This document shows positions 19,524-47,865 of a stretch of 64,000 bases of DNA, piece after piece (within the stretch, counting starts at the first letter, position 1; each line of letters begins with the position of its first letter). The stretch is from Spirochaetia bacterium (lineage in GTDB: Bacteria; Spirochaetota; Spirochaetia; UBA9216): the NCBI GenBank assembly GCA_963675665.1, contig OY776510.1, positions 1,632,001-1,696,000 of the forward strand, written 5' to 3'. The position numbers and the translations under genes were made by a program. The notes under the pieces were generated by a model, which was not told the origin of the DNA, searched no databases, and saw only the letters and a program-made list of their open reading frames with translations.

Positions 19524-20327
19524 CTACCTGAGTGTTTTAACCTTGTCCATGAATTCCTTAACACGTCTCTCATCCACTTCGTTATAGAATTCCCCGTCCC
19601 GTTTGAATGTTGTTGCGGTAACAGTTCCGTCTGCAATAGCCAGCTGTTCTTCAACGTTTGAAAGCCTGACCCCCGTGTTGGCAAAAACCGGGGTGTCCGG
19701 TATTGCGTCTTTTACCTTTTTCAGTACGGAAGCGTCGGTTTCCGCTCCGGCGGTAAGCCCGGAAACGCATATTGCATCGGGCAGGTGGTTGAATACGGTT
19801 GAGCGGGCTATATCGGCAATGTCGCGTTCAGCCAGGTATTTTGCTGCTTCGGGTACTATGTTGAACAGCAGTTTTACGTGTTCTCCTCCGATTTTATACT
19901 GGTGCCGGATTACCTCGCCGCAATTTGTGTTCCACAGGCCGAAATCGCTGGCATAGACGCCGGAGAAGATTTCCCGGACAAAAAGCCCGTCCACAGCCAC
20001 AGCCAGATCTATTGAAGCTTTTGGGTCCCAAAGGACATTGACTCCATAGGGGATTTTAAGTTCGCACTTCAGTTCGCCTATTATTCTCGCCATTGTCGTG
20101 TAAGTTATCGGTTCAACTTCGGTCAGGTACGGAAGGCTGAATTCGTTTGAAAACATAATGCCGTCTACACCTCCGTTCTGAAGCGCGACAAGATCCTGTC
20201 GGGCCATTTCGATAACCCAGTCAATTCCCTTTTCCCTGTTCCATCCCGGGTCGCCCGGAAGCGCCTGAAGATGGCACATCGCTATTACCGGTTTGTTTAC
20301 ATTAAATACTTCTTTAAGCCAGTTCAT
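19524..20327 (-). CDS. BtpA/SgcQ-family TIM-barrel protein
   Basis: IAMCHLQALPGDP, GGVDGIMFSNEFSLPY, GVNVLWD and ANTGV motifs; start moved to 20327 after AGGAGA. Confidence 0.85.
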   Translation of the reverse strand: MNWLKEVFNVNKPVIAMCHLQALPGDPGWNREKGIDWVIEMARQDLVALQNGGVDGIMFSNEFSLPYLTEVEPITYTTMARIIGELKCELKIPYGVNVLWDPKASIDLAVAVDGLFVREIFSGVYASDFGLWNTNCGEVIRHQYKIGGEHVKLLFNIVPEAAKYLAERDIADIARSTVFNHLPDAICVSGLTAGAETDASVLKKVKDAIPDTPVFANTGVRLSNVEEQLAIADGTVTATTFKRDGEFYNEVDERRVKEFMDKVKTLR

Positions 20328-20889
20328 AATTTCTCCTATAAAAAGTTTCCGCATGGATTGGCGGGTCTGTGATATGAAGTTTGCAGGTGAAAGCCGGCAA
20401 ACTTCAAAATGAAAAAGTACACGGAAGTACTTTTATCATAAATCCTCCTGAAATAATTCCCGCCATGGATTGGCGGGTCTGTGATATGAAGTTTGCAGGT
20501 GAAAGCCGGCAAACTTCAAAATGAGAAAGTACACGGAAGTACTTTTATCATAAATCCTCCTGAAATAATTCCCGCCATGGATTGGCGGGTCTGTGATATG
20601 AAGTTTGCAGGTGAAAGCCGGCAAACTTCAAAATGAAAAAGTACACGGAAGTACTTTTATCATAAATCCTCCTGAAATAATTCCCGCCATGGATTGGCGG
20701 GTCTGTGATATGAAGTTTGCAGGTGAAAGCCGGCAAACTTCAAAATGAAAAAAGTACACGGAAGTACTTTTATCATAAATCCTCCTGAAATAATTCCCGC
20801 CATGGATTGGCGGGTCTGTGATATGAAGTTTGCAGGTGAAAACCGGCAAACTTCAAAATGAAAAAAGTACATGGAAGTACTTTTTTCAT
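20328..20889. repeat. Tandem array of five nearly identical 112-113 bp three-hairpin units
   Basis: catggattggcggg recurs at 20352, 20464, 20576, 20688 and 20801. Minus-strand ATGs fall at 20889, 20776, 20663, 20551, 20439 and 20327 (the last is the BtpA start). Confidence 0.95.
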
Positions 20890-21650
20890 TCTATGTCTAT
20901 TTTTACGCCGCTGTTCTGCAGCGACTGTTTCACTTTTAAATTCGGTTCGCTGTTAGTGACAAGTATGTCTATCTCGTCGGGGGTGCAGACAAGCGAAAAC
21001 GCCGTTTTTTCAAGCTTGTCGGAGTCCATTAATGCGATTGTTTTTTTTGAGTGGGAGATAATAAGTTTCTTTATTTCGGCATCTTCGATAATGTATTCGG
21101 TAAATCCGGCATCAGGGCTGAAAGCAGCCGTCGACATGAAAAATTTATCAAAGTATAGGTTTTCGAAGGTCCTGCGGGTGATATCTCCTACAAGAGAGCC
21201 TTCGGTTTTTCGGACAATTCCTCCTGCGAGGATGGTTTCAATGCCGGGATTCGACAGGAATTTTCCCGCTATATGAATGCTCGGTGTAACAATTGTAAGG
21301 TTTCTGAACGACTGAAGCTCTTCAGCAAAAACCAGGGCTGTAGTTCCAGAATCTATAGCTATGGTATCGCCTTCTTCAACATACTCCGCGGCCTTCCTGC
21401 CGATAAGGCGTTTTTTATCCGAAGAAATATTTTTTCGTACACTGAAGGGCGGTTCGTAACTTCTGCTGACTTCCTTGACAGCGCCGCCGTGGGTCCTTTT
21501 CAGAAAGCCTTCGTTTTCCAGTTCCGACAGGTCTCTTCTTATCGTCATTTCGGATACGAATAAAGCGGCAGCAAGCTCGCTGACAAGAACTGATCCGCTG
21601 TTTTTTACAGTGTTTCTGATGTATTGTTTGCGCTTGTCCGATACGCTCAA
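20886..21650 (-). CDS. DeoR/GlpR-family transcriptional regulator
   Basis: VSEMTIRRDL, RTHGGA and IDSGTT motifs; TTG start after GGAGA. Confidence 0.9.
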   Translation of the reverse strand: MSVSDKRKQYIRNTVKNSGSVLVSELAAALFVSEMTIRRDLSELENEGFLKRTHGGAVKEVSRSYEPPFSVRKNISSDKKRLIGRKAAEYVEEGDTIAIDSGTTALVFAEELQSFRNLTIVTPSIHIAGKFLSNPGIETILAGGIVRKTEGSLVGDITRRTFENLYFDKFFMSTAAFSPDAGFTEYIIEDAEIKKLIISHSKKTIALMDSDKLEKTAFSLVCTPDEIDILVTNSEPNLKVKQSLQNSGVKIDIE

Positions 21651-47752: not shown

Positions 47753-47865
47753 AAATATCCTCCTATGGATTCCCGCCATGGATGCGGGTTGTCGAGGTGA
47801 AGTTTGAATAGCAACGCTTTCAAACTTCGAAATAAAATTGAACATGGAGGTTCAATTTTATTCAT
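47753..47865. mobile_element. Solo 113-bp copy of the three-hairpin element (MITE/REP-like)
   Basis: Same hairpin order as the 20.3-20.9 kb units: cccgc-catggat-gcggg, gaagtttg...caaacttc, and an AT-rich stem with an ATGGAG loop. Flanked by TTCAT direct repeats. Mobility is inferred. Confidence 0.6.

Follow-up and report, generated by a model that had tools for sequence, protein, structure and literature searches.

A tandem array at a spirochaetal deoR–btpA junction: probable IS110-type mini-elements of the TD-1/TD-2 family inserted at Shine-Dalgarno sequences

In the genome of a Spirochaetia bacterium (lineage UBA9216; assembly GCA_963675665.1), a tandem array of hairpin-forming units separates the gene for a DeoR-family regulator from btpA. 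The array lies in a window of 64,000 nucleotides (contig OY776510.1, positions 1,632,001 to 1,696,000); its positions are counted from its first letter, longer numbers referring to loci elsewhere in the genome, and all three features are on the minus strand. The regulator gene (20886..21650) encodes a protein of 254 amino acids with the Pfam domains DeoRC and HTH_DeoR and the C-terminus ...IDIE*, the array occupies 20328-20889, and btpA (19524..20327; PF03437, 303.7 bits) starts, by agreement with its orthologues, at the ATG at 20327. An earlier, sequence-only reading had taken the array for a stack of non-autonomous mobile elements that target ATGA(A) at translation starts and preserve translational coupling; the nature of the unit, its target and its likely partner are considered here.

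Five head-to-tail units of 113, 113, 112, 112 and 112 nt make up the array (determined by script from the sequence), their boundaries marked on the minus strand by ATGs at 20889, 20776, 20663, 20551, 20439 and 20327. Unit 1 (20777..20889) begins with an ATGA that supplies the stop codon of the DeoR-family open reading frame (ORF), the first ATG sharing bases with its TGA; units 2 (20664..20776), 3 (20552..20663), 4 (20440..20551) and 5 (20328..20439) follow, and both ends of the array are flanked by ATGAA. Each unit contains three hairpins, which in unit 3 occupy nt 1-31, 34-65 and 75-93, with CAGGAGG near the 3' end. The predicted fold of the unit (-26.1 kcal/mol, z -8.1 with DNA parameters) was matched by none of 200 shuffles, and the opposite strand folds equally well (z -8.5). 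Every unit has its own Shine-Dalgarno (SD) sequence, CAGGAGG at the 3' end of units 1-4 and TAGGAG in unit 5, and a terminator-like GC hairpin with a T-rich tail was picked up in each of units 1-4 on the mRNA strand, by a pattern scan only. Units 1 and 2 encode 38-codon ORFs whose terminal TGA overlaps the following ATG; the 112-nt units, three of the five, encode the 11-codon MIKVLPCTFSF*. The unit number and spacing, the ATGA overlaps, the SDs, the mini-ORFs and the flanks were found again as the sequence-only reading had described them. The last 24 nt of unit 5 (GCGGAAACTTTTTATAGGAGAAATT), which had escaped notice, are unlike the ends of units 1-4, and because of this difference Tandem Repeats Finder ends the array at 20352 (20352-20889, period 112, 4.8 copies, 98% matches, score 1030; the remaining three rows for the window are of 23-30 bp). 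The 3' end of unit 5 carries the family-typical CTTTTTATAGGAG, followed by AAATT and the btpA ATG, which stands 5 nt past the end of the unit. The longest btpA ORF starts upstream of this, at an ATG at 20354 within unit 5 (MRKLFIGEIMNWLKEV...), the orthologues starting at the position of MNWLKEV; the start of btpA may accordingly be called 9 codons too early in automatic annotation.

The sequence-only reading had recognised no named family with this architecture, but the unit belongs to one. Rfam TD-2 (RF03162, in clan CL00124 with TD-1) matches all five units on the strand opposite to the genes, units 1 (60.4 bits, on the plus strand) and 2 (51.7 bits) above the gathering score of 48.7 bits and units 3, 4 and 5 (43.8, 41.4 and 36.6 bits) below it. 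Weinberg et al. (2007; PMC1950547) knew both motifs only from Treponema denticola, where they counted 28 copies of TD-1, as a rule immediately 5' of genes, and 36 of TD-2; seven of the TD-1 copies were reverse complements of TD-2. In the present genome there are 33 TD-2 matches, 18 of them over threshold, and an iterated nhmmer search begun with the five units gave, at iteration 3, 95 matches at E<=1e-2 and 87 at E<=1e-3. TD-2 is also matched in all five congeners, in one of five genomes from other genera of the family and in one of 30 sampled from other families. A second, solo copy lies within the window at 47754..47862 on the minus strand (an nhmmer match at model positions 5-109, with coordinates extrapolated); it has TAGGAGGA on its left and, on its right, ATAGGAGGAT, ATTT and the ATG of a 366-aa ORF.

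Pairing in the stems is strictly Watson-Crick. Of 658 ungapped cells in hairpin 1, 607 are Watson-Crick, and a column may show as many as four pair types; mismatches are equally rare as G-T and as A-C (7 of each; 22 and 28, respectively, over the three hairpins). Left ends vary with subfamily and species (ATGAT, ATAAT, ATTCA; the Rfam TD-2 consensus, in sense, has GCUGAAAAG), and the other arm of hairpin 1 always compensates. Such pairing, with no strand bias, points to a DNA element or to quasi-palindrome correction rather than to RNA. In the loops of hairpins 1 and 3 the word TCC(A/G)TG recurs from copy to copy and between species, although the stems are variable, and this word looks like a recognition motif for a partner.

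Copies are placed with respect to genes in a highly regular manner. Among the 77 matches that include the 3' end, 61 are followed by a sense ORF of at least 60 aa starting within -3..+12 nt, as compared with 11.3% of random positions and 5 of the 77 when the same question is asked outward from the 5' end on the other strand; of 15 matches that miss even a wider window, eight are followed by the next tandem unit, five by the insertion sequence described below, and two are unexplained. A same-strand ORF ends within -40..+12 nt of 38 of the 70 matches with a 5' end, and therefore about half of the copies lie in operon junctions and half in leaders. The genes downstream are functionally unrelated. 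The sequence-only reading had thus been right to expect further copies oriented at start codons, and its proposal of a non-autonomous mobile element is upheld by the approximately 87-95 copies in this genome and by empty sites at orthologous positions. The loci of copies 4968484, 2881100 and 894935 are each empty in five of five congeners, with, for example, AAGGAG, 6-7 nt and TTG in place of the insertion. At deoR–btpA itself two of three congeners, G001 and G003, are empty, and in G001 (...GAGGAGATATTCAATGA...) the deoR stop and the btpA start overlap in ATGA. The third, G004, retains an element remnant of about 75 nt with hairpin 3 and TTTTATAGGAG; the G004 deoR ORF reads through it (...ATEKVQMPAIGAALQPMQENFIGE*), so that the last approximately 25 residues of the regulator are encoded by element sequence.

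It is these junctions that identify the target. A typical copy in this genome reads ...(T)A(T/C)AGGAGGA | ATGATAAAA...TTTTATAGGAGGAA | few nt | ATG, with an orphan SD against the left end and a new one, supplied by the right end as the earlier reading had claimed, at a normal distance from the start codon. In 47 solo or first copies, GGAGGA at -6..-1 is exact in 17, has one mismatch in five and is represented by a nearby GGAG in six, and 19 have none, some of the latter being, by eye, long-hairpin variants shifted in the alignment. Because GGAGGA flanks the left side and the empty sites consist of AAGGAG, 6-7 nt and a start codon, the target is, on comparison of flanks and empty sites, the SD sequence AGGAG and not ATGA(A) as had been supposed. 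The flanking AGGAG(GA) repeat is indistinguishable from target plus element end when read as a target-site duplication.

A candidate partner was found outside the window, in the IS110 family that the sequence-only reading had named among possible mobilisers. An insertion sequence (IS) of 1,380 bp, first seen behind three copies of the small element, is present in this genome in 15 copies that are 99.6-100% identical; its protein matches DEDD_Tnp_IS110 (65 bits) and Transposase_20 (64.3 bits) in Pfam. In all 15 copies the junctions read ...AGGAGGA|ATGATAAAAAGTCTTCATGA...GACTTTTTATAGGAG|5-7 nt|ATG, the left one also written AGGAGGA | ATGATAAAAAGTCTTCATGAGC and the ends as ATGATAAAAAG...TTGACTTTTTATAGGAG, where the ATG opens a sense ORF of at least 93 aa. 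Five of the 15 lie directly behind a small element and two further copies, by reading, behind hairpin-3-like remnants; at locus 894935 a small element and an IS stand in series where five congeners have a single caGGAGaaaaaaATG-type site. An empty site for the IS at 1288557 was not obtained from the congeners, in which the E1-beta query returned only paralogues of about 55% identity. If the right end of the IS were joined to the left (e.g., L041, G000:C1:1288557-1289936), the joint would read TTGACT, 17 nt, TAAAAA, which on inspection would be a promoter-like arrangement across a circle junction.

The leader of this IS suggests how it finds its site. It is non-coding and about 210 nt long, with two modules that are each built around GGTCnnCGAGACC. 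Behind the first stands nnnAGGAGA, the letters of which agree with the bases to the left of AGGAGGA at the insertion site at 50 of 64 positions in 16 homologues; at the three variable positions 34 of 48 agree, against 0.39 in mismatched pairs (0 of 10,000 shuffles), in a test that overstates independence, the homologues including close kin. Behind the second is (G/A)ATAGGAGA, which does not vary and corresponds to the equally invariant right end TATAGGAG. The arrangement agrees with the bridge-RNA mechanism of IS110-family elements, reportedly described by Durrant et al. in 2024: the 1,380-bp IS has the expected protein domains, and its loop letters agree with target and donor flanks. The IS would presumably read the SD with such an RNA guide. 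Between its TAGGAG and the host ATG lie 6 nt in 12 copies, 5 nt in two and 7 nt in one, a range narrower than expected from SD spacing alone, and an invariant CAT opens the first leader module; the start codon may itself belong to the recognised sequence. By eye, the 5' strand of leader loop 1 and the spacer before the start codon do not agree beyond this CAT, and an Rfam search of the IS and its leader (E<=1) returned no family.

The IS is not confined to this organism. Homologues with 52-79% protein identity occur in named metagenome-assembled genomes of Spirochaetota, Desulfobacterota, Gracilibacteria and Bacteroidota and in a Leptospira. Among the 29 homologue loci examined, 16 have the left-end pattern and 21 have TTGACTTTTTATAGGAG, 0-9 nt and a start codon, the misses including contig-end cuts and distant homologues of 33-37% identity. 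In genome G028 a copy with 68% DNA identity has the same termini and the same SD and ATG context, before a gene whose product starts MSYYTGEKEFF. A second IS110 element, of about 1.5 kb with a 387-aa ORF, was considered as a partner and set aside: it occurs at eight places in this genome (e.g., G000:C1 2621203-2622704 and 2045401-2048400) with unrelated ends and targets. Its copy at 2622704 lies within hairpin 1 of a small element, and the SD-homing IS follows at 2622810.

The small element and the 1,380-bp IS have their termini in common. The left ends match over about 20 nt with one indel (ATGATAAAAAGTC(C/T)TCCATGA and ATGATAAAAAGTCTTCATGA) and the right ends over about 14 nt ((A)CTTTTTATAGGAG and GACTTTTTATAGGAG); GGAGGA, with at most one mismatch, stands to the left of 22 of 47 small copies and 15 of 15 IS copies; and both point the same way as the downstream gene, whose start codon follows within a few nt, and replace the SD. 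Because ends, junction, orientation and SD replacement are the same, the small element is linked to the IS. Precedents exist for such a partnership: MITEPpu9 rides on the IS110-family ISPpu9 (PMC12288879), a mini-IS retaining the ends only moves when transposase and the non-coding region are supplied in trans (PMC11187229), and for an IS110 element, ISPpu10, a preprint reports that the target can require a GC-rich stem-loop on the 5' side of the paired sequence. Hairpin 3 of the small element sits where an ISPpu10-type requirement would place such a stem-loop.

Taken together, these observations make it probable that the unit is a non-autonomous, IS110-type mobile element of about 110 bp belonging to the TD-1/TD-2 family. 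It would integrate in one orientation directly 3' of the SD AGGAG, between the SD and the start codon (target form TTTAGGAG, 6 nt, ATG), by means of the DEDD recombinase and the bridge RNA that an IS110-type IS, for instance the 15-copy element, provides. The right end, a T-run and TATAGGAG, would then replace the SD at its native 5-7 nt from the start codon, leaving the host SD orphaned against the left end (GGAGGA|ATGATAAAA...). Further elements or IS copies can land behind an existing copy because each insertion regenerates the target at its 3' end. The data establish membership of the family, placement and orientation, the empty sites, the common termini, the agreement between guide and target in the IS, and polymorphism in copy number. 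Mobilisation in trans by the IS110 enzyme is what we infer from all this, as are the order of events at the locus and any effect on expression. The wider proposal, that TD-1 and TD-2 are not RNA genes and are the miniature, non-autonomous partners of a widespread SD-guided IS110 clade, both homing in sense to the interval between SD and start codon before nearly any gene and rebuilding the SD, is put forward tentatively, its chances being a little short of even.

Several observations weigh against this interpretation. Nineteen of the 47 copies, the deoR–btpA array included, lack an SD-like left flank. Left ends vary, only part of the family matches the left end of the IS, and the sharing of termini holds for the ATGAT subfamily only; the three palindromes of the small element are without counterpart in the IS. 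The non-tandem small copies are old, being at most 90.3% identical (median 63.9%, 1,525 pairs), and since the IS copies are 99.6-100% identical, there is no sign of a small element having been moved by the IS in its present form. The two do not co-occur as partners might: TD-2 is present in seven of 11 family genomes, mostly drafts, and the IS in only one, the present genome, a search at E<=1e-30 having detected no IS in the five congeners and five other family members, six of these ten holding TD-2. In four congeners searched with the Pfam IS110 models, the sole IS110 gene was an unrelated one in G004, and no small element was found in the 700-nt flanks of 80 fetched IS homologues from other organisms. 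Finally, no circle, excision product or transposition event has been observed, the four sequencing runs compared consisting of contigs, which do not reveal circle junctions.

Some of these points would be expected if the unit were an independent palindromic repeat, akin to repetitive extragenic palindromic (REP) sequences and spread by other means, with the IS110 element merely favouring its 3' GC stem-loop followed by TTTTTATAGGAG. The large age gap between the two repeat families, and congeners that have the element and lack the IS, are readily accommodated, as are the five IS copies behind full small elements and the two behind remnants. IS110 elements are known to hit repeated palindromes, ISPpu9 inserting into REP sequences (PMC12288879) and ISPpu10 needing the stem-loop mentioned above. 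What such a repeat leaves unexplained, however, is the likeness between the left ends of the IS (ATGATAAAAAGTCTTCATGA) and of the small element over some 20 nt, the former being conserved in other phyla where no small element was seen, and the presence of the small element alone exactly 3' of an orphan GGAGGA, at the same junction as the IS. Nor is there a transposase of the kind that mobilises REP sequences: no match to the Y1 transposase of REP-associated tyrosine transposases (RAYT; PF01797), another mobiliser that the earlier reading had suggested, was found in this genome or in G001, G004 and G005, and a single match in G003 is interrupted by stop codons. We therefore regard an independent repeat as unlikely, albeit the strongest competitor to an IS110-type mini-element.

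Less probable again is a structured RNA, either a 5' leader regulating in cis (as TD-1 would suggest) or a small antisense RNA (as TD-2 would), retained for a role in expression and copied together with it. The family is filed as a small RNA gene in Rfam, its hairpins are far more stable than those of shuffled sequences, and the pattern scan puts a terminator-like hairpin before the SD in units 1-4. RNA stems usually tolerate G-U pairs, whereas in these stems G-U is no commoner than A-C whichever strand is read (22 and 28 cells), and both strands fold equally well. Conservation with orthologous genes, as would be expected of a cis-regulatory leader, is likewise not seen, the same genes occurring without the element in congeners at all four loci compared, and the lack of functional relationship among the downstream genes fits poorly with a common regulatory role. 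Covariation and a 5' regulatory configuration were reported for TD-1, but pair-breaking mutations reduced the authors' own confidence in TD-1 and TD-2 as RNAs (Weinberg et al. 2007, PMC1950547).

The cassette envisaged by the sequence-only reading, which targets ATGA(A) and preserves translational coupling by means of an SD and a mini-ORF, has very little left to commend it. Its starting points are real: the ATGA overlaps and the two 38-codon ORFs exist, the empty site in G001 has the deoR stop and btpA start overlapping in ATGA, and a TTT spacer, seen in the deoR–btpA array only, puts the GGAGG of a unit 4 nt before the next ATG. As a family feature, however, the coupled mini-ORF fails, since ATG opens no more than 25 of the 56 full-length copies; the ORFs that it starts have 3-44 codons (one has 196), 19 of the 25 stop well within the element, and the six that reach the 3' end include units 1 and 2 of this array, in which three of the five units have the 11-codon ORF. 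In typical copies the left SD is about 1 nt from the ATG, a spacing too short for initiation, and empty sites and flanks indicate AGGAG as the target. The ATGA overlaps and 38-codon ORFs are by-products of unit length and not a designed coupling device.

The array at deoR–btpA is best seen as a local amplification of the element, homogeneous arrays growing and shrinking by unequal recombination between units. Adjacent units are 97.3, 99.1, 99.1 and 92.0% identical (three differences in 113 aligned positions between units 1 and 2; 92% between units 4 and 5), as compared with a best match of 73.7% and a median of 67.5% to other copies in the genome. In sequencing run X5, whose organism is a relative (7 differences in 552 nt and 17 in 600 nt), a single contig of 18,397 nt joins 20351 to 20801 and skips 449 nt, that is, four units, which indicates that the related strain has one unit where five are present here. 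Given the similarity of the units and this one-unit strain, the array grew here, or shrank in the other strain, by local events. Stacking of the sort proposed by the earlier reading is borne out by the array itself and by IS copies behind small elements, and also at 2973364, where two units are 99.0% alike and a third is 69.7% alike; to judge from these identities, this heterogeneous array shows a separate insertion behind an existing copy. G004 has a tandem array of its own (L069:3495-3782), with three units that belong to a sister subfamily (left end ATTCAAATTGAAC) and CAGGAGAAT(T) on both sides, before a gene starting MGKFMTMPK. The SD-homing IS was not found in G004, and because its array exists without that IS, homogeneous arrays need only recombination. 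The first insertion at deoR–btpA is harder to reconstruct. The left junction (GACATAGA|ATGAAAAAAG) has no SD and is atypical, and the DeoR-family gene ends 8-12 codons earlier than in the empty-site congeners G001 and G003; the array's own insertion may have been atypical, or may have been followed by a deletion, the missing codons reflecting either a later deletion or an off-target insertion. That the array is an assembly artefact of a single copy can hardly be entertained, even though short-read contigs are unable to span it and the related strain has one copy, since in run X1 (same organism, 0 differences; possibly from the sample behind the assembly, making its support not fully independent) contigs end at the array borders, at 20381, and restart at 20812, a collapsed 131-nt repeat contig has a depth of 71.7 against 19 in the flanks (3.8x), and the units can be told apart by a handful of positions, the 113/112 length difference among them.

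Should this interpretation be correct, two Rfam motifs that have been without a function since 2007 would acquire a concrete explanation at the level of DNA, and a clade of recombinases would prove to have as its programmed target the ribosome-binding site, which precedes most bacterial genes. The replacement SD built into the element would make insertion nearly harmless and the near-universal target would allow the clade to cross phyla, both of which bear on the spread of IS110 elements between phyla and on the natural target range of bridge RNAs. Operon junctions would also receive hairpins, stop codons, terminator-like stems and short ORFs from arrays of mini-elements, and for annotation such arrays create spurious small ORFs and false long starts, as with the longest btpA ORF here. 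A literature search that covered few subscription journals and did not extend to ISfinder found no SD-targeting IS110 element with a mini-element and no reading of TD-1 or TD-2 as mobile DNA.

Among known systems, TD-1 and TD-2 themselves have the same three-hairpin architecture and loop motifs as the present element. They were described, however, as candidate RNAs of T. denticola with function unknown, whereas the present family occurs in another spirochaete family and behaves as inserted DNA, with empty sites, no G-U bias and ends common to an IS110-type IS. REP sequences and the bacterial interspersed mosaic elements (BIMEs) built from them, with their RAYT, are likewise abundant extragenic palindromes, sometimes clustered, and are targets of IS110-family elements. 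The elements described here differ in being about 110 bp long with three different palindromes, in occurring at the 5' and not the 3' ends of genes in one orientation, and in the lack of a Y1 transposase in the genome. From classical miniature inverted-repeat transposable elements they are set apart by ends (ATGATAAAA... and ...TATAGGAG) that are not inverted repeats, the palindromes being internal. MITEPpu9/ssr9 is closer, being a small non-autonomous element with IS110-like ends that is found both beside its IS and alone and for which a transposase acting in trans has been proposed, although it carries a small RNA gene, has eight copies and inserts with its IS into REP sequences (PMC12288879). 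The present element, in contrast, has about 90 copies, three palindromes, the SD as target and an SD of its own; it would be a second, far more abundant mini-element borne by IS110.

For the 1,380-bp IS, a parallel in target choice is presumably IS900/IS901 of Mycobacterium avium, which we take to belong to the IS110 family too and to lie in one orientation at translation initiation signals. IS900 is said to target such signals by Doran et al. (1997), and reportedly uses host signals to express a gene on its complementary strand; we know of no small derivative family or tandem arrays of IS900 or IS901. In architecture the IS resembles the bridge-RNA or seekRNA insertion sequences of the IS110 family, such as IS621 and ISEc11 (PMC11187229): it has the DEDD_Tnp_IS110 and Transposase_20 domains and a 5' non-coding region of about 210 nt containing two loop modules, lacks inverted repeats, and inserts at a specific target in a single orientation. 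It differs from them in that the words serving as left target guide and left donor guide are almost identical, and in that its target is the SD itself, which the right end rebuilds at its native spacing.

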